A DNA stretch of 63,626 bases, counting the filler, from Collodictyon triciliatum (taxonomy: Eukaryota): assembly GCA_043381765.1 (NCBI GenBank). It is 8 parts of 8 records of this genome, joined end to end, with 100 filler letters (N's around TTAATTAATTAA, not from the genome) between each part and the next. Parts side by side here need not be neighbours in the genome. Positions count along the whole stretch, not along the records: positions 40,191 to 50,122 come from JBHJMP010002847.1; 7 more parts are not named here. One strand, written 5' to 3'. The translations under genes and the position numbers were made by a program. The notes below the pieces were generated by a model. That model did no database searches, was not told where the DNA came from, and saw only the letters and a program-made list of their open reading frames with translations. This document shows positions 1,144 through 62,449 of this stretch, one piece after another. The first letter of the stretch is position 1; the number at the start of each line of letters is the position of its first letter.

Positions 1144-3383
1144 AACTACAGAATGATTTTTATTTAGTCTTTCATACTGTTGAATGATTTAATTATAGAT
1201 TCGGGCTGCTTCTAGAGGATTTGGATGCCTTTGCTGGACATGTAGCGTACAAACACTGTGAAAATCCCGACAATCCGTCCGTCCACAACCAAGTTATAGT
1301 TACTGCATCAGTGAATCGAATTGACCTTCTCAATAAGCTTCATCCTGACAGAGATCTTCGCTTTCGCGGTTTAGTAGCTCGTTTTTTTTTCTAGACAAAA
1401 TGCACAATTTCTAGCACGAAAAGAAAAATGATAACGTGGACATGAACATGAAACCTATCACATACTTAGAATTCATATCCTTAGGTTGTGTCACTTGGGT
1501 CGGTCGTTCCTCTATGAACATACTTATAAAAGTATCATCATGCAGAATCGGTATATCAAACGAGCAGACAAGGCCTAGCGACTGGAACCCAATCAGTAAC
1601 TCGATTTTTTTTTAAAAAAAAATAATTGACAAGTAAATATAACAAGTAAAAGAAAAATATTTAGTATTTAGCATATATTGAATAGTCTCTCCAAATCAAA
1701 TCTAACCAACAAAACGTAAAAACAGTATCTGCAAACTTTATGATGGTTGCGCGATGCCCAAATTCAAACACTGCTGTTCCTGTTCCACGACTAGACATAC
1801 AGAATGACCTTGAACAACGGTGGTTCGATGATGGCGAAGGTTTATCTCATAATGACCAGATTATGTATTTCTTTAATTTTAACTCGATACATACATATAT
1901 TAAAAAAACGTGTCTTATTCGCGACTTTGGCTGCTGGTAACTATACCAAGTCCCAGCACACCTCGACTAAACAGGAAATTTAAATACTGGTATCCGATGG
2001 GAATATTCTTGCATTTATCAAGCTCAATATCATAAAATATGTAAATATTTTGAATTTCAGAATCGCACAAGGCAATGCTTCAAATGAGGGAATCGTCTGT
2101 TTTCCATAAACCACCGGTATGATAGTGATGGCATTATCAAACGATTCATAGACCATGCATTTGAATTTTCATGACTCACATGCTCTGGATACAGGAACAA
2201 TATTCTTGATTTGTTATGTATATCCTACATCATCATGTCTTGTCATTATTGCAAAAATCTTACTCCCAGTCAAAATGAACAGACTGCTACCGAGAGCGAG
2301 CTCATCCATTCGCTTTATCTTGAAAATTCGAAAAACAAAGAAATCCAACCTGAAAAATCCTTTCGCTTTATGAGCCAGACTGCGACTCAGTCGGTTATAT
2401 TTTGTCATCCTCAAGTGGGTCTATGCGATAGATAATCCATTTGGTCCTAACTGGTTATATATTTGGCGATGGTTCTCTGACACTATGCTAGATTCTGAAT
2501 CATGACTAAATAAATCTCGATTTTTCATATTCCCAACTATTCTTCCATACAATAATTGATGAGCCTTATTTTCCTTCTTTTTCTTTTTCTTTTTCTTTTT
2601 CTTTTTCTTTTTCTTTTTCTTTTTGTCTTTTCTAGGAGCGCAACATCCACAACAAAATATTTGGAGGATTCCTGATGCGACAGGCCTACGACTTGGCCTT
2701 CACAAACGCATACCTATACGTAGGCGACCGCCCATACTTTCTCGCCTTGGATGATATCAGGTACATCCCTTCACAACTGAATATATCAGACAACTATAAA
2801 ACACTCGGTAACGTTTCGAAAAGTGTCGCCCATGAATAGAATTTCTCTTCACTGAGGACATCTTCTGTTTTATTTTTTTCATAGTACAAAAAGAGAAAAG
2901 TGAAGAAAAAGAAAAAAAACCAAATTGATTTCTATTCACACCATATCCACGTATAACTTCCGCCAGCTTCCTCAAACCAGTGGAAATCGGCTCCATCTGC
3001 GACTTCAAATCCAAAGTTGTGTATGCACAAGGCTACCCACACGGTTCGATACAAGTGCAGGTATCAGCCGAGGTGGTGAATCCGAAGCTCAATACACGAG
3101 ACGTCACAAACGTGTTCCACTTCATCTTTGCATCCCCTTCCACACGTGTCAAGAAGGTTATACATCGATTATCCTATATCGCATGCTTGCTCATTTTATA
3201 TCACCCACACACCAACACAACAACTAAGATGCTGCAGTGAGCCAAACAAATCCTAAAGAAATCCCCAACATGCAGCTCATCCCAGAAACCTACTCGGACT
3301 TCCTTGTCTACCTGGACGCAATGCGCAGACATGTTCGCGGGCGAGACAAACGCGTGGCCACATCCCTGGTGCAGAGCTATTGA
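378..3383 (+). CDS. ACOT9: Acyl-CoA thioesterase 9-like (double hotdog fold), copy A, 11 exons, probable mitochondrial presequence
   Basis: GT-AG exons join in phase: FGLLLEDLDAFAGHVAYKHC, IVTASVNRIDL, GCVTWVGRSSM, ANFMMVAR, HPQ|ERNIHNKIFGGFLMRQAYDLA, FLKPVEIGS, TNVFHFIF, LIPETYSD. ATG at 378, TGA at 3381-3383. Confidence 0.9.
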
Positions 3384-3509
3384 TTGCCATCACAATTGTA
3401 ATCACAACCACAATCACAATTACAATCACGGAATGGAATTGAACAGGATGAAGGACAAAAATATAAAGAAATAAGGGGAAAAAAAGAATAAAGCTTACAA
3501 AAGGCCACA

Positions 3510-3810
3510 AAACACCGCACGCGACCGACCATATATGGCCATATCCAAAGCAACACCCACGCTCACTGTTCCAAAACAAACCGCACGCACGCGACAAGAG
3601 GCCGACACCATTTGCAGAACCGCACCAAATCCGTCCCAAATTCACTGAAACCCGCCGAAACAAAGCGCACGCGCAGACCCCGCACGCGCACCAACGCACG
3701 CGCACAACTCAGAGGGAGCGGCAGGGCAGCCAATATGGAGAGCGTGCGTGTAATCAGAGTCGAGGGTATATATAGAGCCAATAGATATAAGATTCAGCCA
3801 GCCCAATGGT
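3510..3810 (+). promoter_or_regulatory. Putative promoter of the second thioesterase: CArG-like CCATATATGG (3529-3538), repeated CGCACGC motifs, three CCAAT boxes, TATA-like TATATATAG
   Basis: The motifs are visible in a CpG-rich stretch 130-430 nt upstream of ATG 3941. Function is inferred only. Confidence 0.4.
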
Positions 3811-6701: not shown

Positions 6702-7569
6702 TATCAATGTACATGATGTCCGGTGGCCCGTGACTCCCTCTCCCTCGCTCTCTCTCCCGCTTCGTTGCTCACCTTTGCACCTAAAAAGGAGCTCCCAATA
6801 CCATTGAAAGTTAATGACCAGATGGCGGCTGGAAACAATGCTCCTGTATTGTCTAAAACCTCCATTCCAATACTCTCTTCCTGTTATCATCTCCCCCTCT
6901 CCATATCCACACACATGCGTCAATATCCAGCCCCAGATAGCAGAGAATCTCTCGGAGATGTTTCCATACCCTGAAGGGTGCTATCCATCTTTATCGTAGA
7001 ATAAAATCACAGAAAGAACTTGCATTATCGAAACTAACACTGAATACTGGGCGTAGAGACCGCTTGAGACCTGAGTCAGTAACGTGAATACTTGCCCGGA
7101 CCGTGGATAAAGGATTAATTTATTTTTGTCCCGAGGGCGCATATTTTGACAGAAGGCACCGAAAAGAGCCCTGTAATCTGAGTTGCTCCACCCGGCGCGG
7201 TTAACTAGAGATGTATGGACGGACAAATATAGCCCAGTGATGAGTCGTTTGGTTCACCCCTCAGATGGCCGCTTTCCTATAATTTGAAAGAGTGATTCGC
7301 TGCAACTCTAATATGTGGATACTTCGAATCCAAGAGCGGGTTTTTTTTTCCGTGTATGTAAGTTGGTCAGTAGACAAACCAATTGCCGAATATTTGCTAG
7401 AATACAATTGGGTGTGAGATGAGCTAGGACAATGGAAACACCGATTATTTTAATATTATTTTATTTTATGATTCGAACAGACAAACAAAATAAGTGAATC
7501 GACCAGGCGTTCTCACATGCCATCAAAGTCTGCACAGGCAGTAATACAGTGCTTTGTTTTATAGGCTGC

Positions 7570-9954
7570 ATGGGGGATTTGGATGGCCCCTTCAAAGGAC
7601 ATGATGAAAATGCACATGTGGGCGAAATACAAGATTCACAAGCTGGCCCATCATTGAGCACGCCATGCGACGAGGTCTCCATGGTGTTGCCAGAACATAC
7701 CTCTGACTGCATAAAAATGATGAAGGAAAACGCAGTCTCTAACTTTATGATTGGCCATGACCAAGAGGCTCGTCGACTCCTTCAAGAACTTGGTCGGCTA
7801 ACTATTCCAGGTTATCCAGAGTGTTGCACAGAAACCATCCACGTTGTGGCTTGGCATGGTTTGGTAGATATTGTGCCCTTACTATTGGGCAAAGAACACT
7901 CACTTGATGCTCTTGATGGCTTTAACTGGACCCCGTTACATGCAGCAGCTTACGCGGGGCAAATAGACTTTGTAAGGCACATAATTCGTTTCTATCCGGC
8001 CTATTTTCATATTGATTCGCCTGACGAAGCGGGATGCACTCCTTTGATGGCCGCAGCCAGGCAAGGGCAAAGGGATATAATTGAAATATTACTTAGAAAC
8101 GGTGCTGATTTGAGTCGGTGCGATGCTTCTGGGCGGCATTGCTGGGATTATGCCAGTGATGGAGGCCATAAGCAATTGGAGGATTATCTGATTGACATGT
8201 TTCGTAAAACAGTGATGGAGAACACCAAAAGTCCTAAAACTTCGAGTGTCAACACCCTCGCTCAAGCAAAACTTGGGACATCAAATGCAGAAATAAGAGA
8301 GTGTACAGAATTTGAAACATACACGGGCGTTGGCGAGCGATGGGTCAATCAGGAATCTCATCAGGAACAGTTTTTCATAAAACCCGTGAGCGAGGGATTT
8401 CATGGCGCCGCTATTAAAACGGCAGGTACAATCTGTTTGGCATCTGTGTATTGTACTTTTCCATATGATAAATTATTGCTTTTTGGTACTGAATACGTTT
8501 TTTTTTTTTTCATACATTTGATACGGTGGAAGAATTCTTTTTGATTATATTTTTTATTTTTACGAAACGTATTCATAATGAAATTACTATCCCTTGTTGC
8601 AGTATATAGAAAAGGTAAAGAACACAACCCAGAGATAGCCGAGCAACCGTACAATGACATTCCCATGCCTTCGAAACCAGTATTTCTGTCGCTCGTTTCC
8701 GTTGCTCAAACTGTCTTGTTGATAATAATTTTGAACAACGGTGGGATTGTATCACTAAAGTAATAGATCATTTGAATCATCGCCTTTGATAGTCTTTAGC
8801 TATTTACAAAAGATTGGCCTTTTTATGCGCTTTCTTCCTTATAAATGCAGTTTTGTCTACACGTATGATGAAATCTATATTTTGAAATGGTTTACTATAT
8901 TTATTGAACTGCCTGTTTTGCCAGAGAAAATCATGCCCTCGGTCCAGAGTTGAGTGATGTCCACATGTACGGTATGAACTTGACGTGCCTTCTCCATATT
9001 GAGCAACTACAGCCGTGCCAGATTACATCTCATACAAGAAATGTTTTAAATGGATATCACACTAACGATATGAAGAATCAATTGGTTCATGATAGGTGCT
9101 AGAGACACAGAGAAAATCATGGAAGGACAATGGTGGCGATGGCTGACGGCGATGTTTGTGCATTCAGGAATCTTTCATATGTTATGTATACTATTTGGGC
9201 ATTGGTGCGTTTGCCAACACATCGAGAGAAAGTACGGAACTTTCCCAGTGGGAGTTGTCTACATAGGAGGCGGGATAATGAGAACACTTTTTTCTGGTAA
9301 TATATTTGAACATTTGAGGGGATCCGAAATAATGTTCGCATCTATGATATATATTTGTTCCTCATCAACGAGAAATAGAAAAACACGCTACCGTGCTAAT
9401 GAAACTATGTCTGCATTTGAGCCAGAGCTTTAACAAATATGCACTTTACTTAGCACTTTTTCAGCCCTTGGAAGTTAGCTATGGCTCCAGTGGTGCTATG
9501 TTTGCAACTTTGGCTCTCATACCGGTTGATTTGATAAAGAACTGGGAGATTATTGTCCAACCGACCAGAATTATCGTTATTTATACGATTTGTGTAGGAT
9601 TGTCGTTTGCTGCCGGGCTTCTTCCTTTAGTACTATGCGTTAATGTTTTAAAATCATATCATTTATAAATTGAAATATTTTTCCACCAGTGCTTTTTTCT
9701 ATGTATATCCGTTAACATTATATATGCGAAAAGATAATCTTCTGATTTTATTTGATAGGTAGACAACTTTTCACACATCGGCGGTTTTGTAGGAGGCTTC
9801 TTCATTTCCCTCTTTGTTGTTTTGGACATCCCTAGAAATTGCTTATATATCCGCAAATTGGCTCGACTGGCTGGTATCATATTATATCTGGCGCTATTGA
9901 CAGCCTCCTTTGTGTGGGTATATACCAGTAAAAAACCATTGTGTGACTGGTGCC
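7570..9954 (+). CDS. Ankyrin-repeat rhomboid intramembrane serine protease (3' end cut by contig end)
   Basis: Exon 1 has ankyrin repeats (WTPLHAAAYAG, CTPLMAAARQG). Phase-compatible splicing leads to ENHALGP, GQWWRWLTAMFVHSGIFH, YGSSGAMF (catalytic Ser), DNFSHIGGF (catalytic His) and a final CDWC. Confidence 0.82.
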
Positions 9955-10054
9955 NNNNNNNNNNNNNNNNNNNNNNNNNNNNNNNNNNNNNNNNNNNNTT
10001 AATTAATTAANNNNNNNNNNNNNNNNNNNNNNNNNNNNNNNNNNNNNNNNNNNN
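9955..10054. other. Artificial contig linker N44-TTAATTAATTAA-N44; identical linkers at 20003-20102, 30048-30147, 40091-40190, 50123-50222, 60153-60252 and 62282-62381
   Basis: Seven identical 100-nt blocks with stop codons in all six frames. Confidence 0.99.
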
Positions 10055-20002: not shown

Positions 20003-20454
20003 NNNNNNNNNNNNNNNNNNNNNNNNNNNNNNNNNNNNNNNNNNNNTTAATTAATTAANNNNNNNNNNNNNNNNNNNNNNNNNNNNNNNNNNNNNNNNNN
20101 NNACTAATTTTTTAAAAAAAAAAAATACATGAAAAAAAAAAAAAAATTTCTTTAATTAAAAAACTAAAAAAAAAAAAAAAAACATAAAAGTATACTTAAA
20201 CTTAATCAGATCCAAACCAATCCAATATGGCACACATGAACAAGCAATTAATGCCAAAAAAGAAAAGTAAGGTACCATGAAAAGAAGAGAGATAAAGAGG
20301 GAGGAGACGTTATTTATTTTGCTGTATGGCACGAATGAACCGAATTGCTGTTCAAGTGGCGGTTTTGGCCGGAACTGGTCGTCCTTCTTTTGCGGCCGGG
20401 AATACACACAACCCGAAAGAGGATACACCCGAGTGTTTTTTTTTTTTTTTCAAA

Positions 20455-30047: not shown

Positions 30048-30147
30048 NNNNNNNNNNNNNNNNNNNNNNNNNNNNNNNNNNNNNNNNNNNNTTAATTAAT
30101 TAANNNNNNNNNNNNNNNNNNNNNNNNNNNNNNNNNNNNNNNNNNNN

Positions 30148-32867: not shown

Positions 32868-37359
<4,492 letters not shown>

Positions 37360-39123: not shown

Positions 39124-39826
39124 TTATGATATACAGCATTGTTTGGAGGATGCTGCGTGGGACTGGCTTGGGGAAGCATCTTGTGATTCAGTAGATGTGA
39201 CTGTGAAACTTTTGTAATTCGGCGGTGCGAAGGTTGCCTTGGTGCGAGACTTTTCAATATATCTCCGGATTGTGTCTGGACCTTGACTGCAAACTGACAG
39301 TGGTGGGTTTACAATTGGGTTGAAGCGGACATCAAAGACCTGCAGATTGCGAAAGGCAAGAAAGTCGCCCCCAAGCGACCTCAACTGGTTATTGCTCAGA
39401 TAAAACTCTTCAAGATTCCGATGGATTGGCATCGCTTGGGATTCGCCTGAGTCGAGACTATCTGCTTCGTTAGCCTGCATAGGAATCAAGAGGGGGTTGA
39501 TTGGCTTGGAAAAGAATAAATCTTGTAGTTGATTGTCTTCCATATGTAGAATCTCTAGAGACGGGAGCTTTGCAATCCACTCTGGTATATTGTAGAACTG
39601 GTTCTTGCTCAGATTTAGGGCGCGAAGCTCAGGGAACCCACGAAAGTCACCGGGGAATGAACCGACATCTAGAATGTTCCCACTAAGTGATAGAGCTCTC
39701 AATAATGGCAAAGAGCTCATGACTGATGGGATAATGCGAAGCTGGTTGTTATCGAAGTTTGCCACTCGAAGAGAGGTGATGCAGGAAATGGACTCAGGGA
39801 TGGACCGGAGCTGATTGTTAAAAATC
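39124..39826 (-). CDS. Leucine-rich repeat protein (RSU1/LRRC58-like repeats) with C-terminal CaaX (CCIS), last exon only
   Basis: LxxLxLxxN repeats (LRALSLSGN, LRALNLSKN, LEILHMEDN, LEEFYLSNN), the LRR cap PPLSVCSQG, and the ending KQCCIS*. Confidence 0.85.
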
Positions 39827-39940
39827 CTGTAGAAACCAATAGTACATGAACTCAGTCATACCACACATTATTGAGAAGTCATCCAATTTCTAGAATGTTT
39901 GCTTTCATACTCCCGTAATAAATGGTGTTTTCAATTGTTT

Positions 39941-40090: not shown

Positions 40091-40190
40091 NNNNNNNNNN
40101 NNNNNNNNNNNNNNNNNNNNNNNNNNNNNNNNNNTTAATTAATTAANNNNNNNNNNNNNNNNNNNNNNNNNNNNNNNNNNNNNNNNNNNN

Positions 40191-43100
40191 AATACATGAT
40201 TTGTTTCCATATGAGCCGGAGTTTGAGTTGAATGAGCCTTTTGGACAAGCGTAGCATGATTTTGAGTATTTCATTATGTCTTCTTTTTGGTAGAATCCTG
40301 ATGAACATAAGCTGCATGATGCGCTTCTTTCTGAGCTGTAGCTTCCATCTGGACATGAAATGCATGATGATTGATTGAATGAGCCTGTTTGATTGTTGAA
40401 TGTACCAGCTGGACATGATGTGCATGATGCCTGACCATCTCTATCATTCCAAGTACCTTGGGGACATTTGATACATGATTTGTATCCATATGAGCCAGAG
40501 TTTGAGTTGAATGTGCCTTTTGGACAAGCATGACATGATTCGGAGTCTTTTATGATGCCTTCTTTTTGATAGAATCCCGATAGGCAAAGGCTGCATGATG
40601 CGCTTCTTTCTGAGCTGTAGCTTCCATTTGGACACGAAATGCACAATGATTGATTGAATGAACCAGTTTTATTGTTGAATGTCCCAGCTGGACATGATGT
40701 ACATGATGCTTGGCCATCTCTATCATTCCAGGTACCTTGTGGACATTCACTACATGATAAGTTTCCATATAAACCAGAGTTTGAGTTGAATGTGCCTTTT
40801 GGACAAGCATAGCATGATTGTGAGCCTTTTATGATTCCTTCTTTTTGATAGAATCCGGATAAGCATAAGCTGCATGAAGAGCTTCTTTCTGAGCTGTAGC
40901 TTCCATTTGGACACGAAATGCATGATGATTGATTGAATGAGCCCGTTTTGTTGTTGAATGTACCAGCCGGACATGATGTGCATGATGCTTGACCATCTCT
41001 ATCATTCCAAGTACCTTGTGGACATTCAATACATGATTTGTTTCCATATGAGCCGGAGTTTGAGTTGAATGTACCTTTTAGACAAGCATAGCATGATTGT
41101 GAGTCTTTTGTGATTCCTTCTTTTTGATAGAATCCTGATGAGCATAAGCTGCATGATGCGCTTCCAACTGAGCAGTAGCCTCCTTTCGGACATGAAATGC
41201 ACGATGATTGATTGAATGAGCCATATTTATTGTTGAATGTACCCGCTGGACATGATGTACATGATGCTTGACCCTCTCTATCATTCCAAGTACCTTGTGG
41301 ACATTCAATGCATGATTTGTTTCCATATAAGCCGGAGTTTGAGTTGAATGTGCCTTTTGGACAAACATAACATGATTCTGAATCTTTTATTATACCTTCT
41401 TTTTGATAGAATCCTGATGAGCAAAAACTACATGATGCGCTTCTTTCCGGGCTGTAGCTTCCATTTGGACATGAAATGCATGATGATTGATTGGATGAGC
41501 CAGTTTTGTTGTTGAATGTACCAGGTAGACATGATGTGCATGATGCTTGACCATCTCTATCATTCCAAGTGCCTTGCGGACATTCAATGCATGATTTGTT
41601 TCCATATGAGCCGGAGTTTGAGTTGAATGTACCTTTTAGACAAGAATAGCATGATTGTGAGTCTTTTGTGATTCCTTCTTTTTGATAGAATCCAGGTGAG
41701 CATAAGCTGCATGATGCGCTTCTTTCTGAGCTGTAGCTTCCATTTGGACATGAAATACATAGTAATTGATTCAATGAGCCAGTTTTGTTGTTGAATGTAC
41801 CAGCTGGACATGATGTGCATGATGCTTGACCCTCTCTATCATTCCAAGTGCCTTGTGGACATTCAATGCATGAATAGTTTCCATATAAGCCGGAGTTTGA
41901 GTTGAATGTGCCTTTTGGACAGGCATAGCATGATTGTGAATCTTTTGTGATTCCTTCTTTTTGATAGAATCCTGATAAACATAAGCTGCATGATGAGCTT
42001 CTTTCTGAGCTGTAGCTTCCATTTGGACATGAAATACATAGTAATTGATTCAATGAGCCAGTTTTGTTATTGAATGTACCAGCTGGACATGATGTGCATG
42101 ATGCTTGACCCTCTCTATCATTCCAAGTGCCTTGCGGACATTCAATACATGATTTGTTTCCATATGAGCCGGAGTTTGAGTTGAATGTGCCTTTTGGACA
42201 GGCAAAGCATGATTGTGAATCTTTTGTGATTCCTTCTTTTTGATAGAATCCAGGTGAGCATAAGCTGCATGATGCGCTTCCAACTGAGCAGTAGCTTCCA
42301 TTTGGACATGAAATACATGATGATTGATTGAATGAGCCAGTTTTGTCGTTGAATGTTCCAGCTGGGCATGATATGCACGATGCTTGACCCTCTCTATCAT
42401 TCCAAGTACCTTGTGGACATTCAATGCATGAATAGTTTCCATATGAGCCGGAGTTTGAGTTGAATGTGCCTTTTGGACAAGCGTAGCATGATTGTGAGTC
42501 TTTTGTGATTCCTTCTTTTTGATAGAATCCTGATAAGCATAAGCTGCATGATGCGCTTCCAACTGAGCAGTAGCTTCCTTTCGGACATGAAATGCATAGT
42601 AATTGATTCAATGAGCCAGTTTTATTGTTGAATGTACCAGCGGGGCATGATGCGCATGATGCTTGACCATCTCTATCATTCCAAGTACCTTTTGGACATT
42701 CAACACATGATTTGTTTCCATATGAGCCGGAGTTTGAGTTGAATGTGCCTTTTGGACAAGAGTAGCATGATTTTGAGTCTTTTATGACTCCTTCTTCTTG
42801 ATAGAATCCTGATAAGCACAAACTACATGATGAACTTCTCTCTGAGCTGTAGCTTCCATCTGGACACAGAATACATTGTGATTGGTCAACCGAACCAGTT
42901 TTGTTGTTGAATGTACCAGCTGTGCATGATGCGCATGATGCTTGACCCTCTCTATCATTCCAAGTACCCTGTGGACATTCGTTGCATGATTTGTTTCCAT
43001 ATGAGCCGGAGTTTGAGTTGAATGTACCTTTTAGACAAGCATAGCATGATTGTGAGTCTTTAGTGATTCCTTCTTTTTGATAGAATCCAGGTGAGCATGA

Positions 43101-43770
43101 GCTGCATGATGCGCTTCCAGCTGAGCTGTAGCTTCCATTTGGACATGAAATGCATGATGATTGGTTAAATGAGCCAGTTTTGTTGTTGAATGTACCAGCT
43201 GGACATGATATGCATGATGCTTGACCATCTCTATCATTCCAAGTACCTTGTGGACATTCGATACATGATGAGTTTCCATATGAGCCGGAGTTTGAGTTGA
43301 ATGTGCCTTTTGGACAAGCATAGCATGATTGTGAGTCTTTTGTGATTCCTTCTTTTTGATAGAATCCAGGTGAGCATAAGCCGCATGATGCGCTTCTTTC
43401 TGAGCTGTAGCTTCCATTTGGACAAGAAATACATGAAGATTGGTTGAATGACCCAGTTTTATTATTATATGTACCAGCTGGACATGCTGTGCACGATGCT
43501 TGACCATCTCTATCATTCCAAGTGCCTTGCGGACATTCAATGCATGATTCGTTTCCATATGAGCCGGAGTTTGAGTTGAATGAGCCTTTTAGACAAGCAT
43601 AGCATGATTGTGAGTCTTTTGTGATTCCTTCTTTTTGATAGTACCCTGATGGGCATAAGCTGCATGATGCGCTTCTTTCTGAACTGTAGCTTCCATTTGG
43701 ACATGAAATACATAAAGATTGATTGAATGAGCCAGTTTTATCATTGAATGTACCAGCTGGACACGATATA
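40191..43770 (-). repeat. Coding 279-bp (93-aa, 10 Cys) tandem repeat, about 13 units
   Basis: Twelve GTWNDR motifs spaced 93 aa apart plus a partial first unit; the array runs off the contig end. Confidence 0.95.
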
Positions 43771-46700
43771 CATTCACTTTTATCATAATTTCCAAAAGTT
43801 CCCATTGGACATTTGATACATGATGCGTTACTTTTTTTTTCAACCCCTGGGTTATAAGTTCCTAGAGGACACTCAAGGCATGAACTTTGACTAAAATAGG
43901 GATTATACGAACCAGGTTGACAAATATGACACGTTGATTCCCCTGCATTTGATGAAAATCTTCCTTGTGGACAAGGCTGACAGCTGCTTATACTGGTTGA
44001 TGCGACATTAGGATTGAAAGTACCAGCTGGACAATTTTCACAGGTGATTGATTTCGTTTTATTCGAAAACTTTCCTGTTGAACACGGATAGCAAAACGGT
44101 TTACCTTTCTCGTCCATGTAAAACCCAGCAGGGCATTCGAAACAACTTGATTTTCCATCGACACTGTTGTACATTCCTGGTTCGCATAGCAGACAGGATG
44201 AATTCCCAGCACCTCGAATTCTCGGATTAAAGGCTCCGGCTGGACACGGAGCACATGACTTGTCTCCGGAGTTGCTGTAAAAACCAGCAGTGCAATTATT
44301 ACATGCCACTTGCCCTTTTTGATTTGTGAACGTACCAGCTTCGCATTTTTTGCAAATTGATTGACCCAGAAGGTTATTGAATGTTCCTTCCTCGCAAAAA
44401 ATACAATCTTTAATGCTTGTGGAGCCGATTGATGGATTATAAGTCCCCGTTGGACATAATATACAAAAACTGAGCTCATTTCCATTATTGTAAGAACCAG
44501 ATGGACATTTTTCACATATATTTGACTGCTGGTTGAAAAAATATCCTCCTTGGCATGGACTCCAGACTTTGATAAATATGTCAGAGCTCGCTGAAATTAT
44601 TTTTGAATCTGAAGTAACAAAGACACTATTCACTGAATTGGTGTGACTCAAAAGTGATCTAATTTCTCTTCCATCTGAGATTGACCATATTTTGACTGAT
44701 TTATCACTGCTTCCAGAATACACTTTCGTTCCGTCTGTTGATACCGAGATGCTATTTACTGAGCTTGTGTGCCCAGTGATTGTTCGAATTAAGGAACCAT
44801 CTGACATGTTCCAAATTTTGATTGTGTTATCACTGCTTCCAGAGATAATTTTTGACCCATCTGGAGAGGTAATAACACATCTGACAGCATTTCCGTGTCC
44901 AGTTATGGTTCTTATCAGTATTCCATCAGATAAATTCCAAACCATGAGGGAAAAATCAGCACTTCCCGATATAATTTTTGTACCATCAGGAGTGATAAAG
45001 ACACAATTCACTGCCTTTGTATGCCTTGACAAAGTTCGAACTAAAGTTCCATCTGAAACTTTCCAAATATTGATATTCATGTCGTCTCCTCCTGATACTA
45101 TCGTTGAACTATCTGATGATATTGCTACGCTTCTAACAGCTTCAGTATGTCCACTTAATGTTTTTAATAGTAAACCATCTGAAAAATTCCATATTTTTAC
45201 AGAATTGTCGCTGCTTCCCGACACAATTTTTGTTCCATCAGCTGACACAACCACACTATTCACAGTACTTGTATGGGCATTTATCGAAAGTGCTTGAGAA
45301 CCATCAGCATAGTTCCAGATTTTTATTGTGTTATCACTGGCTCCTGATACAATTTTAGTTTTATCTGAGCTCAAAAAAACGCTATTCACTGAACTTGTGT
45401 GGCCTGAAACAGTCAAAATCAAGCTGAAATCAGGAAAGTTCCACATTTTGATTGTTGTGTCGTCGCTTCCTGACAAAAACTTTGTACCGTCAGAGAAAAC
45501 TGATATTCCGTTTATTGTAGCTCCGTGCTCGTTCAGTATATGTGATGTCACTCCACTTGAAAAGCTCCATATTCTAACTGTGTTATCGCTGCTTCCAGAA
45601 ATAATCTTGGAGCCATCCGGAGATATTACCACTGCTTTGACAATTCCAGTATGCCCATTAAGAGTGCGAATTAAACTTCCATCTAAAATGCTGGTAATTT
45701 TGATTGTTTTATCGCTGCTCCCAGAAACAATTTTTGTTCCATCTGGCGTTATGGAAACAGAGTTTATAGAATCAGTGTGAATTTTTATATCTTGAATTAA
45801 TGAACCATCAGAAAAATTCCAAACTTTTATTGTTTTGTCAGCACTTCCTGAGATAATCTTAGAACCGCCAGGATTTAAAATCACACTTGTAACGCTGCTT
45901 GTGTGACCTGTTATAGTGCGAATCAAACCTCCTGAAATATTGGTTATTTTGATTGTTTTATCGCTACTCCCTGAGACAATATTCCTTCCATCCGCGGTCA
46001 AAGTAATGTAATTCACTGAATCTGTGTGAATTTCAAGTGATTTAATCAAAGAACCATCATTTATATTCCATATTTTGATTGCTTTATCAGTGCTTCCAGA
46101 AATTATTATGGTACTGTCAAAGCTCAAAGCTATACCATTAACAATATCTGAATGACCTGTCAGTGAGAGAAGCAATGTTCCATCTTGCGCATTCCAAACT
46201 CTCACAATATTGTCTGAATGTCCCGATACAAATAATGATTTGATATTAGATACTTGTATGTTTGTAACTCTGGAGCCTTTGGAATAAATAAGCATTCCAT
46301 CAGTGAAATTCCAAACTCGTATTGCTCTGTCCCAAGATCCCGATACAATCATTGAAATATCAGAAGTTACAGAGACACTCGATACACCTGCAAAAGGGCT
46401 CACAATAGTTCGGATCAAAACTCCGTCAGAAATCTTCCACGTTTTAATTGTTTTATCTTCACTAGCAGAAACAATCATCGAACCGTCAGAGGTAATACTT
46501 ACACAGTTAATAATATTAGCATGACCAGTGAATGTGAGAATCAAAACTCCATCAGAAAAATTCCAAACTTTGATTGTTTTATCACTACTTCCCGAAACAA
46601 TTTTCGCACAATCAGGAGTGACAGTAACACTAAGAACAGAACTTGAATGACCCGTCAGTGTGCGAATTAATGCTCCATCAGAAAGATTCCAAACCTTGAT

Positions 46701-47328
46701 TGTTTTATCACTACTTCCCGAAACAATTTTCAAGCCATCAGGTGTAACAACCACACTGTGAACCCAATTGGCATGACCTATTAATGTGTAAATCGATTTT
46801 CCATCTGAAATATTCCATATTTTTACCGTTTTATCAGCACTTCCGGACGCAATTAATGTACTATTTGGACTCGCATTGATTGAAAAAATGTCATTTGAAT
46901 GACCAGTAAGCGTTCGAATCGGTGTCCCATCTACCAAATTCCAAATTTTTATTGTTCTGTCCCATCCTCCAGAAGCAATCTTTGAGCCATCAGGAGTGAC
47001 AGCAACACTTAAAATTGCATAAGTGTGGCCTCTTAAAGTGCGAATCAAAGCTCCATCAGAAAGATTCCATATTTTGATTGTTCTGTCATCACCCCCAGAA
47101 ACGATTTTTGAGCCTTCAGGAGTAACAGCAACACAACGGACGAAATTTAAATGACCAGTTCCAGTTGTGTAAATTGATGAAACTTGACACATGCAGGAAA
47201 CAAAAATGCACATGAGAATCAGCCCTAATATAAATTATAATTTAGACCATTATCTAAAGTATCGATATTGCAGACTTACCTTGAGTCCATATTGCACGAA
47301 ATCGTGAAACTGGATTTTTTTCTCTCAT
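40191..47328 (-). CDS. Giant putative cell-surface protein: signal peptide + 21 WD40 repeats + Cys-rich (GCC2/GCC3, ephrin-receptor-like) repeats; 3'-truncated
   Basis: Exon 1 (ATG 47328) plus a 55-nt GT-AG intron (47225-47279) gives MREKNPVSRFRAIWTQGLILMCIFVSCMC. A ~7-kb exon follows with GH..V.SV..TPDGSKIVSGSSDKTIKIW repeats and then CPxGxY/F...CxxC repeats. Confidence 0.88.
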
Positions 47329-47445
47329 TCGTAACTAAGGAAAGCAAGTTATAAATTATCTTCGTGGTTTTTTATATTTCTGAATAATTAGAGCGCCTGA
47401 AAATGAAAAAAAATGAAATGAACCAAAGTACATATGTGTGAATGC

Positions 47446-47494: not shown

Positions 47495-50409
47495 TTAGTC
47501 AAACTTTCTCTTCATAGATATAATCAGTATCAAGATACGACTCAGCACTTAGAGTTCAAATATTAAATAATTTATTTATCCAACAAGTTAAGCATTAATT
47601 TATCATAATTTTGATAACACTAACTATATTCACATTAAGGCTCTGATATTTTAACTATAATTATCAGTTTGAAAAGAGTGCATAAGTAAACATTATCTCA
47701 AAATTGCTATCATTTATCGATGTAATTATTATAGTAAGTTGACAATATTCTCAACTAAGCGAATGGATAACATGAAATGATATTAAAAATGCTATTTATG
47801 GTATAAATAGATAATATTCTGAAATTATATAAGTGAAAAAGTGAAATTCAAATATTATCATTCAATCTGAAGTATTGACTGAGACTAATTTTGTAGTGGG
47901 CATGCTCTATGATTGTTAAAAATTTATATTTGCGTATAAATCAATATTATGAATTATTGTTTGGGACTAAAAAATCTTTATGTTATATAATTGATTTTTA
48001 CACGGATGTCTGAATAGAAATTGGAAATACATATGTATACCCAATTTCATGACAAGAATAAACTACAATTCGTAAAATATATATATAATGTTTCAAAATC
48101 AGTGGAATGATTACGTGCAACAATTGTGGCCAACCACAAGATGTAAAAGATAAAGTAAAAATCTTTTTGGGAATAACCTTTGTACTCATCAATCAGATTT
48201 CCCAAAAAAAAATTACATGAATGAAATATGTATTTTGTTCATGTTGACTAAAAGAACGGTGATGGAAGTAACTTACCTTTCCTATAAACCAGCATCTAGT
48301 CCTGCAAACGTGAACACACCAAAACATTTTTTTATTCATACTTAAATCTCATTTGGTGTATCATGTGGTGAGTATAAGTAATAATTATCTTCAAAATCGA
48401 ATCAAAAATCTCATTTTACACTATTTAAATATCATATGTGATTTTCGAATTTTAAAGCCAGATCTTTATGTTTCCAATATAAGGTTTGATTGAAATTTTT
48501 GCATTTATGACAATTATATTCGATTGTAAATATGAATAACGATCATGTATATCAATAGAAGATTTTGATGACCAAGACTAGATTCAGTACAGTTTTTTCT
48601 TTTTCTCTGATATTGATCATGAAGCGGCATTAGCTTGCATTAAAAAAATCACCATATTATCAATTATTCATACGTGTCATGAAATCAAAATGAAATTGAA
48701 AATTTTGTATTGTATACTGAAATTTTTCGTCTTTATTATGGACTGGCAATCAAAAGATATTTCATGAGCTTTTTCTTCCTTCGAAGAAATTAACTCTGCC
48801 ACTTGAGTAATGGTGGGATATTTTTTGATGCTAGGCTAGTAAATTTATGATGTTGACACTTTGAAAAGATATAGGACCCGCAATATTGTGTATTGCAATT
48901 ATGATAATTAAGATAAAATTTCTATCATTCAACGTCTCATAGTTCTGAGAAACGTAACAATGATTTTGATATGCACCTTAGGAAGACTTTCATGACTACA
49001 GATAATTGATATAACAGGAAATGAGTGTATTCAGATACAACTGACTGATATCGAGAAATCATAAAGTTTTGGCTCGTCAGCAGTTCAATTATATTTTATA
49101 TAATTATATATCGATATAATCACAAAAAAAATCAAATATGCTGGTGATAACTATATTGGCGATGCTTTTCTTTTTCCTTCACTGCCTGCAACACTCGAAC
49201 TTGACTAGAAGAGGGGCTGATCTACCAGAAACAATTTTAGAAGGTAAAATATAAGTGATTATAGATTGAAGCAAACTTCTTTTCTATTATTTGGCGATTT
49301 TTTTTCTCATTCTCTCGTGCTTCTTTTGGCTCGTCGGAAAATATCCTCGATGATAGAGCAAAGAGATGATCGTAACATTCGTGCACTGTATTTTTAGAGG
49401 TATTCGCGAGGAGTATGGGTAGAAAACCACAAGGATGGTAAATAAATCGTTCATGCGATGATCAGAGGCTTGAAGCAAGGAGGAAAAAATGATCGCAAAG
49501 AGCAGTTTCATAAGCCTGCTGCCTTTTAAAAAGCAGGCACCTGACGACATAGCTCGTGAGCAAGCGACATTTACACCTCCAATATGGCGCTCAATAAAAC
49601 AAGGAAGCTGAATCAGTCTGAGAAAGCCGTGCTGTGCAGTCACAGGGATCTGGTGTCAGTGCTGTGTTTCCACACAACTTACTTTCAGGCGACCACGAAT
49701 TATTTCCAACCCCGGAGTGGCGTGATTCTTGTGTCTTGATTCATCTCCGGGGCACAACACGTTTACCAACTCAATTACAAAGTTAATTTATTGTGGAATT
49801 TATATTAAACTAGCATTCTGTGACTTCGTTTATCGATAATTAATTCATGGGAATCTAGTTTTTTCTTTATTCTATTCAAAGTGTAGCGAGGTTATACCAT
49901 ACAAAGGGGCGAGATGGGTGTGCGTGGCAGTGAGCAAAAGCAAGTTGAAGACGCTACCGTGGAGAGGGTAGCACTGGAAAGAAATCAGCGATAGCGAGTT
50001 GGTCAGGTGGGCGTCCCAAACTAGTTGATTGGTTGCGTGGGTAGCAGGGGTTGGATATGCTGTGGGAGATATCGCACGACACATTCCCACATCTCTCTTC
50101 GCTTGCGGTCAGAGTAGCGAAGNNNNNNNNNNNNNNNNNNNNNNNNNNNNNNNNNNNNNNNNNNNNTTAATTAATTAANNNNNNNNNNNNNNNNNNNNNN
50201 NNNNNNNNNNNNNNNNNNNNNNAAAAAAAGAGAGAAAAAAAAAGAGAGAAAAAAAAAGAGAGAAAAAAAAAGAGAGAAAAAAAAAGAGAGAAAAAAAGAG
50301 AAAAAAAGAGAAAAAAAGAGAGAAAAGAAACTAGCCCCCCTCTCCTGCGAAAGAGAGAGACAATTAAAGACTGACTCCTCACTGGACACAGCTACGCAAC
50401 AGCAGCTTC

Positions 50410-53400
50410 ATGAGCCGAGCCAAAGCAGCTTTACGCCGGCCTCTGCAGACACTGCCAACCATCCGGGAGACAACCGGACTCACACATCCAGACGGAGCCA
50501 ATCACGAAGCATCAGCCGCACACCTCCCACCGCTGCCCACATGTGCCTTACCGGAGTCCTTTATGCGTCTGTGGACAGCAGAAGCCTTCCCATTCCTGCA
50601 AGTGACCAACCCTGTGGCCCCGTTCTTACCACAGCCACAACCACAGCCACAACCACAGCCCCATTCGCTTAGCCTCCACATATCCGGCCCATTGCAGACT
50701 AGTGCAGCAACCACATTCCAAGCACTGAGTCCTGTAGAAGCCGATGCAGCTGCCAAGAGCCAGACCCAGAGCCAGACACAGGCGCAGCCAGGCAATGGTC
50801 CACGCGCTCCGCGGCCGCTCTACAGCACGAGCGACTGCTTCTCACGAGCCACGGCCCATCTCCACATTGCCCCTTTGCAGACAGGCTCTGGCCAGCCGTC
50901 CCACGTCTGCATCAAGGATGAAAGCGCCGACAACTGTGATGATTTACACGCCGACAGCGACGGGGCTGAAGCGTGCAACAACCGTGGCAAGTGTGATGAT
51001 GATGATGATGATGATGATGATGACGGTGATTGTGATGGCGACGGTGGTGAGGACGAAGACAATAAATACAGTGGCCGTAGTAATGTACAAGACAGGCGAA
51101 AGCGTGCTCGTTCAAGAGGCCGAGTCAGTGCAAGTCAACGTCGCACCGGGGTTGCTTTACTGCGAGTCTCCATTGTCCTCCGCACGGCATTGTATACATT
51201 CCCATTTGTGTGCTGCTTTCTTATGTCTTTTGCGCCAGTCCATCCATTTCATGAGTTGAAGTCTCCACAGCAGGCACCGTTTTCCTTTCCGTCTCTATTC
51301 ATTAGTGGCGCATTCTTTCCAGTTTTGATGGTGACATCTGTGCTACAGACGTTAATTGCTCTTGGCATTTGGCGAATTGGATTTCTACCACGGTGGAGAA
51401 GGAGGGATGTGAAGTGGAATCGGCCCGTTTCTCGCCTGATGGACCTAGCTATTGGTTGTGGAGAATGCTTCAACACTCTCCTTTTGGCTGTGTCTGTGCC
51501 CATATTCACCATTCAGTTTTCAACACTCTCATGCTTTGATTCTGGTCGAAATGGGATTCCACACAACCACCCTATATATCCTTCCATAGAATGTTGGTCG
51601 CATCGCCACATTGCTGCACTGGTGGTTGCAATGTCTTGCACACTCTTCTACTGCATCATCATTCTCTGGTTTCGCATCCGAATATACTCTGCTCTCGAGC
51701 GTTCAAAGCATCGCCATGCTGGGCACATGCAACAATCTCAAGCAGAAGCGAGTCAGCCAAAGAATTCAAACCGAATTCCTTTTCTATCTTCGCAAGGCCG
51801 CGCCCAAAGACCTACGAAGGGCAATCAAATCACCACAGCGTTTGCCCCTCATTGTCATCCACACGGCACCATGGACTTTTTCTACGAATCAAACTGTTAC
51901 TCTTTTGTGACCAGATTTTTGCTTGTCTTAACCTTTTCAATTTCATCGATTGTCCTTCACCCATTTGCAAAGATTCCAGCACAAGGACTGTTACTGGGGC
52001 TTTGCTTTGCTTATGTATTACTGCTAGTTGTGCACCCGTCAGCCGTGAACCCAAGATTTCATGGATTTCAGTTTGGCGTGGCATGGGCGCTTTTCGTTGC
52101 CCAGATCGGAATGTGGATACAAGAGTCTTGGGCGACAAATCAAATAATCGGTTCATTTACTACACTTTTATCACTGTCATGGTTCCTGGGGTATTTTTTC
52201 GGTGTTGCTAGGAGTGTTTATCCAAGATACTCTACCCTCCATCGGCTTTTAGACGAGAACCCAACTATTGGACATTCAAAGTTAGAGGAAAAAGCTGCAC
52301 ATAGACTTTTATCATCATTTCCTGATGGCCAGTACTCGATCAACAATCATGTGTTGGTGTTGTGTGGGAAAGTAGCAGACTGTCATGCTATATTTCGGTA
52401 TATGTGGTGTCCTGTTCTGGCAAACCCCACATCGATTTTTTACACAACCTGGATTGAACAAGTGATTGCAATTGATTTGTCTGACAATTTCCTGTCTTCT
52501 GAAGACGTCGTTGTCCTCGCTAGTGCTTTAGTTTCAAGGTCGTCGGTTGTCCAAAAGCTTGATTTATCTCGGAATTCCCTCACATGGGAGGCAAGTTTTC
52601 CACTGTCTGCCTTGATTAGAGGACAGCCACATCTCAGAGAACTCATCCTGGACTCGAATCTCGGGTTTTGCGTGAAAGGGCTGAATGTTTTGGTGACCGA
52701 GATTAGTTCTGGGTCTAACAAACACTTGAAGCATATTAGTTTTAATTTTTGTAACTTTGGACCGCAATCAGCTACTATTATTTCAAGACTCTTGTGCTCT
52801 CAAAGCCATCGACTTACTCTGATCAGTCTGAAAGGCAATAATTTGGGGATGAAAGGTGCTGAAATTATATCTGAAGCAATCATACTCAATGGCCATCGTG
52901 ACATTCACCTCCAATTGAGCTGGAATAACCTCAAAAAGCAAGGGGTAGAGATGTTGTTGAATAGTATCCAGCTGGCTCCCTCGCAAAGTGCAGATTCTGC
53001 GGAAGGGAATTCATCCACAACGGTATCGAGTCGCGGTGGTATCCCTATCTCGTCACGGTCTATTTCGTCGCTATGTTCCGCACCTTTTTCTCATCCAATT
53101 GATATATCCAGCAACGGGTTATCTCATGAAGAAGCCGCAGAGCTATCATGCTCATACATGGTACCCCCACCATTCCTAGCTCCGTGCTCAATCTATGGAG
53201 AGAAAGTGAAAGAAGACAATCATATACTTTTTCAGAGTCACTCACGAAACGATCGGGGCATGCATGAATTAGGAGCCAACGAAAACATTTGTTTGAATGA
53301 CAGTAATGAGCAAGTGAATATACATAAGGGACTCTTTTCACCTACAACATCAACCAAAACACCGGCTCAACCCCTTTCTTTGACAAATTCACCTTCATCT

Positions 53401-53961
53401 TCAGTTCTCGTCACAAACTCGACAATCAAGTCATCAGAGGATGGAATTTCATCCGCCGCTTCAAAATTACCTGCCCAGGACCACAGGGGTTCTTTACCTC
53501 TGGTTGACACGATTGGGGGTGAAGCATTGTTGAAACAGGTCATTGAGGATTTTTACATACGAATTCTTGCAGACCCTACACTTTATCCGATATTTGCCCG
53601 GTCTGATATGACCATTTTGCGTCTTCACAACCAGATATTTATCTCCTCACTCTTTGGAGAGCGTGTCCATCACCAAAACTATCCGCTACGGCAGATTCAC
53701 AAGAGTCTCATGATTACAGACGACCATTTTGATGCCTTTTTGACCCACTTCGTATCCACTTTGACAGAACATAACCAGAGGGTATCGCCAAATACATTAC
53801 AAAAAATTATCAGGAACATGGAATCTGTCCGGCCCCTCATTGTGCAAACCGATAGGGATTCTTCATTTTCCTCCCAGGAGTCGCGCAACTTCTCTGTCTT
53901 TTCATGGATAAGGCGCCTGTTTCATCGCGATTTGGTCCGCGCATATAACGAGGGTGCCTAG
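50410..53961 (+). CDS. Intronless multi-pass membrane protein with RI-type LRRs and a C-terminal group I truncated haemoglobin (2/2 globin) domain
   Basis: About 8 hydrophobic helices (51160-52215, including P.IECW..RH), LRRs (IDLSDNFL, LDLSRNSL, LILDSN, ISLKGNNLG, LQLSWNNL) and the globin LVDTIGGEALLKQVIEDFYIRILADPTLYPIF...LHNQIFI...LRQIHKSLMITDDHFDAF. Confidence 0.9.
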   Translation: MSRAKAALRRPLQTLPTIRETTGLTHPDGANHEASAAHLPPLPTCALPESFMRLWTAEAFPFLQVTNPVAPFLPQPQPQPQPQPHSLSLHISGPLQTSAATTFQALSPVEADAAAKSQTQSQTQAQPGNGPRAPRPLYSTSDCFSRATAHLHIAPLQTGSGQPSHVCIKDESADNCDDLHADSDGAEACNNRGKCDDDDDDDDDDGDCDGDGGEDEDNKYSGRSNVQDRRKRARSRGRVSASQRRTGVALLRVSIVLRTALYTFPFVCCFLMSFAPVHPFHELKSPQQAPFSFPSLFISGAFFPVLMVTSVLQTLIALGIWRIGFLPRWRRRDVKWNRPVSRLMDLAIGCGECFNTLLLAVSVPIFTIQFSTLSCFDSGRNGIPHNHPIYPSIECWSHRHIAALVVAMSCTLFYCIIILWFRIRIYSALERSKHRHAGHMQQSQAEASQPKNSNRIPFLSSQGRAQRPTKGNQITTAFAPHCHPHGTMDFFYESNCYSFVTRFLLVLTFSISSIVLHPFAKIPAQGLLLGLCFAYVLLLVVHPSAVNPRFHGFQFGVAWALFVAQIGMWIQESWATNQIIGSFTTLLSLSWFLGYFFGVARSVYPRYSTLHRLLDENPTIGHSKLEEKAAHRLLSSFPDGQYSINNHVLVLCGKVADCHAIFRYMWCPVLANPTSIFYTTWIEQVIAIDLSDNFLSSEDVVVLASALVSRSSVVQKLDLSRNSLTWEASFPLSALIRGQPHLRELILDSNLGFCVKGLNVLVTEISSGSNKHLKHISFNFCNFGPQSATIISRLLCSQSHRLTLISLKGNNLGMKGAEIISEAIILNGHRDIHLQLSWNNLKKQGVEMLLNSIQLAPSQSADSAEGNSSTTVSSRGGIPISSRSISSLCSAPFSHPIDISSNGLSHEEAAELSCSYMVPPPFLAPCSIYGEKVKEDNHILFQSHSRNDRGMHELGANENICLNDSNEQVNIHKGLFSPTTSTKTPAQPLSLTNSPSSSVLVTNSTIKSSEDGISSAASKLPAQDHRGSLPLVDTIGGEALLKQVIEDFYIRILADPTLYPIFARSDMTILRLHNQIFISSLFGERVHHQNYPLRQIHKSLMITDDHFDAFLTHFVSTLTEHNQRVSPNTLQKIIRNMESVRPLIVQTDRDSSFSSQESRNFSVFSWIRRLFHRDLVRAYNEGA

Positions 53962-60152: not shown

Positions 60153-60252
60153 NNNNNNNNNNNNNNNNNNNNNNNNNNNNNNNNNNNNNNNNNNNNTTAA
60201 TTAATTAANNNNNNNNNNNNNNNNNNNNNNNNNNNNNNNNNNNNNNNNNNNN

Positions 60253-62112: not shown

Positions 62113-62449
62113 TCCCGCGGTATCTCTGCAGACGTGAGCCAGTTCCGTCTATACTGAACCACAAGTGAGTTTACTGTCATTTAGGTAGAATGTAAAAAAA
62201 AAAAAAAAAAAGAAATGAACTTTGCTCTTTCCCCTCTTTCCCCCCTACGACTATCTTGATTCTTTATACTTGCGTTCTTTTNNNNNNNNNNNNNNNNNNN
62301 NNNNNNNNNNNNNNNNNNNNNNNNNTTAATTAATTAANNNNNNNNNNNNNNNNNNNNNNNNNNNNNNNNNNNNNNNNNNNNCTTGCGATATCCTCTTTCC
62401 ATATATGCCTCTTTTTTTTTTTTTTTTTAATTTTGTCCCCTTGCATCAG

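Follow-up and report, generated by a model that had tools for sequence, protein, structure and literature searches.

Can an array of canonical WD40 repeats serve as the outward-facing head of a eukaryotic surface protein? Canonical WD40 proteins in eukaryotes are overwhelmingly intracellular, and the known extracellular propellers of eukaryotes belong to other families, namely YWTD, integrin, Sema, Kelch and RCC1-like propellers such as that of CRINKLY4. The question is raised by one gene in a stretch of 63,626 nucleotides (63.6 kb) from Collodictyon triciliatum (assembly GCA_043381765.1), hereafter called the window, which is a chain of unplaced contigs across whose joins nothing was read. 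The gene lies on the minus strand of the contig at 40191-50122 (9932 bases; JBHJMP010002847.1) and is predicted to encode a signal-like peptide, 21 WD40 repeats and a cysteine-rich stalk of Ephrin_rec_like repeats that runs off the contig. We consider it rather probable, judging from the predicted domains and topology, that the product is a stalked extracellular binding head, i.e. an adhesin or a receptor. Variable heads on Ephrin_rec_like stalks are known, as are propellers outside the cell. What is new here is the predicted combination, in a eukaryote, of an Ephrin_rec_like stalk with an N-terminal head made of three canonical WD40 propellers, an architecture that is rare and unusual, not unique.

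The open reading frame (ORF) that carries both parts of the protein was found by ORF listing and translation and occupies a single minus-strand frame, which stays open for 2348 codons from 47234 as far as the end of the contig (40191) in DNA of 37% GC. A stop at 47235-47237 blocks its extension upstream, and TAA, TAG and TGA are absent from all 2348 codons, so a reassignment of stop codons is not indicated. The gene is most probably real, with a 5' end that is predicted to be complete and a cut 3' end. A first-pass annotation of this DNA had placed the protein at 44560-47328, which is correct for the head and leaves out the Cys-rich part, located at 40191-44561. The parts of the head and the stalk are as follows:

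46311..47174, minus strand: WD40 repeats 1-7 (propeller 1), from the segmentation; the AlphaFold2 predicted local distance difference test score (pLDDT) is mostly above 90, with a boundary dip at model residues 302-304
45441..46310, minus strand: WD40 repeats 8-14 (propeller 2), from the segmentation; pLDDT dip at model residues 591-594
44562..45440, minus strand: WD40 repeats 15-21 (propeller 3), from the segmentation, the translation and the AlphaFold2 model
43767..44561, minus strand: non-tandem part of the stalk, about 265 aa of CxxC-P-x-G-type Ephrin_rec_like repeats, from PF07699, the translation and the match to MST1
40191..43766, minus strand: tandem stalk array with a 279-bp period, 12.8 copies and 89% matches (Tandem Repeats Finder), cut by the contig end; copy number and order are perhaps unreliable in so short a contig

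Manual segmentation divides the WD40 array at 44562-47174 (minus strand) into 21 consecutive units, 18 of which are exactly 42 aa long and the other three 39, 41 and 41 aa. The Pfam family PF00400 matches the array over 19 stretches (E = 1.3e-172; 553.5 bits against a cutoff of 27), and a custom repeat hidden Markov model (HMM) detects 20 repeats. AlphaFold2 was run on residues 17-960 with a 16-row alignment of homologues and returned a model with a mean pLDDT of 85 and 83 strands, corresponding to about 21 blades of four strands each. The only internal low-confidence points of this model, at residues 302-304 and 591-594, fall on the boundaries between repeats 7 and 8 and between repeats 14 and 15, and these dips in the model suggest that the head is made up of three seven-bladed propellers, in agreement with the three times seven repeats counted in the first-pass annotation. 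The predicted template modelling score (pTM) is 0.43, and the model leaves the mutual arrangement of the propellers unfixed. Repeats 7-8 (46200-46450), at the first propeller boundary, are the most degenerate, with the GH dipeptide lost and one unit reduced to 39 aa, and the confidence of the head model is lowest around them; this region may be a hinge or a degenerate blade. The best solved match found by Foldseek is 2ymu_A, a highly repetitive WD40 double propeller of cyanobacterial origin (E = 1.4e-55, 42% identity), with a template modelling score of 0.72 when normalised on the target. Enrichment of NxS/T sequons in the head was considered as a sign of secretion and rejected when compared with shuffled sequences (12 observed, 12.7 expected from composition). 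It holds only relative to homologues, in that the density of 1.37 sequons per 100 aa exceeds 0.91, which is the 95th percentile for a set of 116 homologous arrays.

Upstream of the WD40 array the chain is hydrophobic, and it is this segment that bears on the topology of the protein. The features at the 5' end of the gene are:

47175..47224, minus strand: hydrophobic core of the signal-like peptide, together with its likely cleavage region (Kyte-Doolittle scan)
40191..47224, minus strand: exon 2, an uninterrupted frame of about 2345 codons that leaves the contig at its end
47225..47279, minus strand: proposed intron of 55 nt, GTAAGT...TATTAG, AT-rich, predicted from sequence only
47280..47328, minus strand: proposed exon 1 of 49 nt, opening with the ATG at 47328 (in-frame TAG 9 nt before it) and followed by the GTAAGT donor
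47368..47376, minus strand: TATA-like box TATAAAAAA, called on consensus resemblance only, some 48 nt ahead of the proposed start codon

The 2348-aa frame contains a single hydrophobic segment, at its N-terminus, with a 13-residue core that averages 2.59 on the Kyte-Doolittle scale; no other segment reaches the criterion of 1.6 over 19 residues. Removal of 47225-47279 puts exon 1, in which an ATG is followed by 16 codons and by the opening base of a Gly codon, in frame with the long ORF, and splicing of the two exons is accordingly inferred. The putative exon 1 would code for the basic n-region of the signal-like peptide, so that a basic stretch precedes the hydrophobic core and small residues follow it, which by rule of thumb is the classical signal-peptide layout. 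The spliced hydrophobic N-terminus described in the first-pass annotation is thereby recovered. Without exon 1 the N-terminus of the ORF is still hydrophobic, whichever start codon applies. Since the Kyte-Doolittle scan finds no membrane span between the WD40 head and the Cys stalk, both would lie in the same compartment, and the lumenal or extracellular side is favoured because the Ephrin_rec_like repeats are of the disulfide-ladder type and rich in sequons. An extracellular topology is the best reading of these predictions.

The stalk at 40191-44561 comprises at least 1456 aa with 161 Cys residues before it runs off the contig. It matches the Pfam family PF07699 (Ephrin_rec_like, GCC2_GCC3-type) over 35 stretches with E = 1e-218 and 707.5 bits against a cutoff of 23.1. 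The tandem unit measures 93 aa and carries 10 Cys residues and three to four sequons. In the whole stalk 44 NxS/T sequons are found where 27.7 are expected, and the value of 44 was reached by one of 2000 shuffles, in a stalk whose units are not independent. These figures bear out the disulfide-type Cys repeats with many sequons that had been noted earlier. The stalk appears to be evolving by homogenisation, because the 12 complete tandem units of 93 aa are 85% identical at the protein level; as far as the repeats indicate, homogenisation and copy-number change act on the stalk and not on the head.

The closest solved relative of the stalk by sequence is the Chlamydomonas mastigoneme protein MST1 (8tx1; E = 3.4e-34), where query residues 123-403 match chain residues 1542-1816, within the Cys-rich region only; the second is ELAPOR1 (E = 5.9e-10). 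In the passages of PMC10602792 that describe it, MST1 is extracellular and glycosylated and is built from nine Ig-like domains, six ephrin-receptor-CRD-like (cysteine-rich) domains and a polyproline-II helix, the ephrin-CRD-like domains forming a disulfide ladder with a spacing of about 11 Å in an extracellular filament on cilia. The relationship raises the alternative that the product of the present gene is itself a structural surface filament or hair, such as a mastigoneme or coat fibre, forming an extracellular polymer in which the WD40 propellers are interfaces for subunit assembly. The highly homogenised 93-aa units would suit a structural spacer. The MST1 match is, however, limited to Cys-rich repeats that are common to thousands of unrelated surface proteins (25831 at E <= 0.001, see below), and MST1 differs from our protein in its Ig-like head, its polyproline-II tail, its assembly into a filament and its lack of WD40 repeats, whereas Pfam finds no Ig-like domain in the protein described here. 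We therefore regard the filament as the best of the alternatives and still rather unlikely.

Relatives of the two parts were collected by several searches, of which those for proteins of near length and for longer proteins covered proteins of at least 1291 aa, and that of a representative library covered all lengths. For the last of these the query consisted of the last WD unit and 509 aa of the stalk, and 1.84 billion representatives were scanned. It yielded 25831 proteins at E <= 0.001, and the best 150 among these are 31-41% identical to the stalk and mostly 2000-8000 aa long. Giant protist proteins with Ephrin_rec_like repeats share the stalk family with our gene and differ from it in their heads, which are of the TIG/IPT (according to the source's own protein name), RCC1, F5/8-C or other types; RCC1-type propellers are embedded in two of the Ephrin_rec_like giants (P0204 and P0133 in our numbering). 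Many of the stalk relatives look membrane-anchored, with a transmembrane-like segment predicted after residue 60 in 191 of the 247 proteins collected and within the last 400 aa in 90 of them. When the 247 were scanned with the custom repeat HMM, 246 were without WD40 repeats, unlike the present gene, and a single one, P0151, contained them.

P0151 is a metagenome protein of 4656 aa from ENA. Like our protein it is of secreted type, its sole hydrophobic segment being a signal-like N-terminus; Cys-rich modules are spread over its whole length, and its C-terminus carries Ephrin_rec_like-type repeats as in the stalk. Its two consensus-type WD40 propellers (residues about 1240-1530 and 3330-3640) are 42% identical to the head and contain no more than one Cys each. 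It is not an orthologue. Its propellers are internal, two in number and of at most seven repeats each, and the modules around them are different (EGF-like and other Cys-rich ones). Going by its predicted domains, P0151 shows an independent case of WD40 propellers inside secreted-type Cys-rich giants.

The relatives of the head are of a different kind. The near-length search gave 120 matches listed, 115 of them with WD40 repeats only and 5 with Cys repeats only, and the best head match among them is a cyanobacterial AAA-like protein with 51% identity. Regular WD40 arrays of this type had been described in the first-pass annotation as typically cytoplasmic, a statement that proved too narrow when the 115 WD40 matches were put through a crude hydropathy screen. 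Unexpectedly, the screen found a signal-like N-terminus directly before the first GH in 24 matches, as in the present head. In another 26 a hydrophobic segment lies within the 200 aa upstream of an array that comes after a large N-terminal domain, in 21 the segment fits neither class, and 44 have no hydrophobic segment. The 24 signal-bearing arrays appear from these sequences to form a large group of bacterial multi-propeller proteins that are exported and so far uncharacterised. All 24, among them P0031, P0060, P0055, P0094 and P0041, measure about 1300-2700 aa and have a very long WD40 array; P0041 and P0094 are labelled Gemmataceae, and others include unnamed metagenome proteins and JGI "WD40 repeat protein" entries. 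The exported bacterial arrays resemble the head in their consensus-type 42-aa repeat, at 26-51% identity, and multiples of seven are common among the arrays, several having 21 repeats as in the head. They differ from the gene in being prokaryotic and in lacking a Cys-rich stalk, and many carry a kinase, an AAA/STAND domain or an M56 peptidase. Extracytoplasmic WD40 domains have also been predicted for cyanobacterial orthocaspases, in part of a review (PMC7475262).

Relatives with head and stalk fused were almost absent from the searches: none among the 120 near-length matches listed, one (P0151) among the 120 longer proteins listed, and none among the best 150 matches from the representative library. 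In metagenome contigs 35 WD40 loci were found, the best with 44% identity, and none of the 35 had a Cys-rich tblastn match beside it; viral contigs gave no pattern match to the architecture. The Protein Atlas contained only generic WD40 clusters and generic Ephrin_rec_like clusters, with scores of at most 0.86. Literature searches, with supplements left out, found no paper describing a protein with WD40 and Ephrin_rec_like repeats. An architecture that is neither common nor already described, as implied from the outset, is what these results indicate, with one of 247 stalk relatives sharing the WD40 repeats.

A number of observations count against the favoured reading of the gene, and we collect them here. 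The 873-aa head has 5 Cys residues and no disulfides repeated from blade to blade, and its sequons are at the level expected from composition, so that clear signs of adaptation to oxidising conditions are missing from it. Both exon 1 and the intron are predictions, the hydropathy screens of the homologues are crude, and the 3' end of the gene is cut by the contig end at 40191, so a C-terminal anchor is not visible. The GC content at third codon positions (GC3) is 0.41-0.64 in long ORFs elsewhere in the window, compared with 0.28-0.30 in the WD40/Cys gene, a difference that may reflect a genome compartment of another composition, another expression class of genes or another organism in the assembly. 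Finally, no orthologue was found that would speak for conservation of the fusion, the best identities among the matches listed being 41% for the stalk and 51% for the head.

Several of these points could be accommodated by a cytosolic protein whose N-terminal signal is not real, with Cys repeats that bind metal or stay reduced and a WD40 array that acts as an intracellular scaffold or sensor. Such a protein would conform to the general rule for eukaryotic WD40 proteins, and it would agree with a head without stabilising disulfides or surplus sequons and with an exon 1 that is only predicted. Against it stand the 13-residue hydrophobic core with which the ORF itself opens, irrespective of the start codon, the lumenal or extracellular location of Ephrin_rec_like repeats in MST1, ELAPOR1 and the ephrin-receptor type, and the enrichment of sequons in the stalk. 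P0151 and the 24 signal-bearing bacterial-type matches among the 115 listed further argue that exported WD40 arrays exist. A cytosolic location is therefore improbable in our judgement. As for the claim in the first-pass annotation that the protein is extracellular, we retain it as a prediction, with head and stalk in one compartment, a signal-like N-terminus and the parallel of P0151, and without the NLR origin with which it had been coupled.

That a WD40 gene was misjoined to a Cys-rich gene during assembly, or that the locus is an unexpressed pseudogene, might be suspected from a contig of only 9932 bases that is unplaced and ends inside a repeat array and from the lack of a fused orthologue in the protein, representative-library and metagenome searches, but misassembly is unlikely because the join is in frame and exactly where the last WD40 repeat, itself complete, gives way to the Cys repeats (the last WD40 Trp is followed by two residues and then by the first stalk Cys), because GC3 is uniform across it (0.28 in the head, 0.29 in the unique stalk and 0.30 in the tandem stalk), and because the only signal-like segment, needed for entry of the stalk into the endoplasmic reticulum (ER), precedes the head, and with seven kilobases free of stops in AT-rich DNA speaking against decay, we give an artefact of either kind very little credence.

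The first-pass annotation had further proposed that the head is a HET-E-like recognition module redeployed from an NLR-type sensor, with repeat variation concentrated after the GH dipeptide and before the Asp. The resemblance to Podospora HET-E and HET-D (HNWD) lies in a regular WD40 array with the consensus GH...SGS-D-T-[IV]-[KR]-[IV]-W, and fungal NACHT-WD40 proteins are among the head matches with 41-45% identity. HET-E is otherwise different, being a cytosolic protein with HET and NACHT domains, and in the parts of PMC12222747 dealing with these repeats those of one gene share 80-100% identity and vary at seven positions only (10, 11, 12, 14, 30, 32 and 39 in the numbering of that paper). 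The repeats of the present head have a mean pairwise identity of only 47% at the protein level (range 29-71%) and 58% at the DNA level, calculated on the 18 units of 42 aa. This is near the median of 92 other multi-repeat WD40 arrays (0.49 against 0.51), among which only four reach an identity of 0.8 or more. Positions after GH and before the Asp are indeed variable in the head, and positions 2, 6, 12 and 22 are equally so; the per-position entropy correlates with the mean of the 92 other arrays (Spearman 0.73), so the variability is, judging from this comparison, the generic WD40 surface pattern. Pfam finds neither a NACHT or other NTPase domain nor an N-terminal effector domain in the protein. 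Homogenised repeats of the kind characteristic of HET-E occur in the stalk of the present protein and not in its head. An origin of the head from HET-E or another NLR, with HET-E-like hypervariability, is weakly supported by its sequence, and an exported bacterial array is as plausible a source, the identities not separating the two classes.

For the function of a propeller on a Cys-rich domain we consider the CRINKLY4 ectodomain to be the nearest analogue. According to part of a preprint (bioRxiv 10.1101/2020.08.10.245050), CRINKLY4 resembles our gene in having a signal peptide, a seven-bladed propeller as head and then a Cys-rich domain, and in the CRINKLY4/ACR4 ectodomain it is the propeller that carries the function. 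The same source describes a single RCC1/BLIP-II-like propeller with a disulfide in each blade, a short TNFR-like Cys-rich domain, a transmembrane segment and a kinase. In contrast, the present gene would provide three canonical G-beta-type WD40 propellers without blade disulfides on a stalk of at least 1456 aa. An extracellular propeller is also used in gamete adhesion by plant GEX3, as presented in part of PMC13589550.

If the protein is a stalked adhesin or receptor as we propose, a cleavable signal peptide (or a signal anchor) would bring the chain of this giant protein into the ER, and the mature protein would begin with a row of three seven-bladed WD40 propellers, borne on the distal end of the stalk. 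The stalk itself would be a rigid, N-glycosylated disulfide ladder of at least 35 Ephrin_rec_like repeats holding the propellers tens of nanometres off the cell surface, as suggested by the spacing in MST1; extrapolation from about 80 disulfides at about 11 Å each would give a rod of some 90 nm or more. The propellers would then act as a protein- or glycan-binding head, and the C-terminus beyond the contig end would anchor the protein in the membrane or serve its assembly. A more specific version of this proposal, which we consider quite unlikely to be right in full, is that the surface WD40 array, of a repeat class employed by STAND/NLR immune receptors and by exported bacterial proteins, reads ligands at the tip of a giant stalked receptor and so recognises non-self, prey or mates. 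It would then be the equivalent, outside the cell, of WD40 sensing by NLRs, perhaps derived by fusion of a bacterial-type exported array to a protist Cys stalk.

Should the favoured reading hold, the known kinds of extracellular binding module would be joined by another, a head of three WD40 propellers that acquires its fold in the ER and is presented on a stalk of disulfides. Taken with P0151 and the many signal-bearing bacterial arrays, the finding would make the WD40 array a portable recognition head that is used on either side of the membrane. The head is also a definite construct that can be expressed, and with it the binding partners of such heads could be sought. At present this is one gene, cut at its 3' end and known from its sequence, and it should be regarded as a lead rather than a result.

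The 2.8 kb upstream of the gene are AT-rich (33% GC) and contain no ORF above 122 aa and no recognised domain, the short ORFs there not having been put through Pfam. This flank, poor in genes, and the predicted intron point to a eukaryote as the source. No other copy of the gene is present elsewhere in the window, and Rfam and tRNA scans gave no matches. The joined contigs measure 9954, 9948, 9945, 9943, 9932, 9930 and 2029 bases, with a further piece at the window end, and are separated by seven linkers of the form N44-TTAATTAATTAA-N44, located at 9955-10054, 20003-20102, 30048-30147, 40091-40190, 50123-50222, 60153-60252 and 62282-62381.

Ten further ORFs of 151-311 aa on the other contigs match no Pfam family, and Pfam analysis of 17 ORFs from these contigs returned only ankyrin, leucine-rich-repeat (LRR) and truncated-globin domains. 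The features concerned are:

7498..8544, plus strand; 32868..33488, minus strand; 39124..39855, minus strand: ankyrin-repeat ORFs on two contigs and a leucine-rich-repeat ORF on a third
50368..53961, plus strand, on the contig next to that of the WD40/Cys gene: an uninterrupted frame of 1197 aa with a C-terminal truncated-haemoglobin domain (Bac_globin, E = 3.3e-11)

The 1197-aa ORF has an odd combination of domains and no close relative was found for it; a search with its residues 600-1197 brought up seven matches, each of them weak (25-28% identity) and located in the LRR region of an NLR protein from fish. Several of the contig ends in the window consist of microsatellites, namely (TGTA)n, (AAT)n and A-rich repeats.

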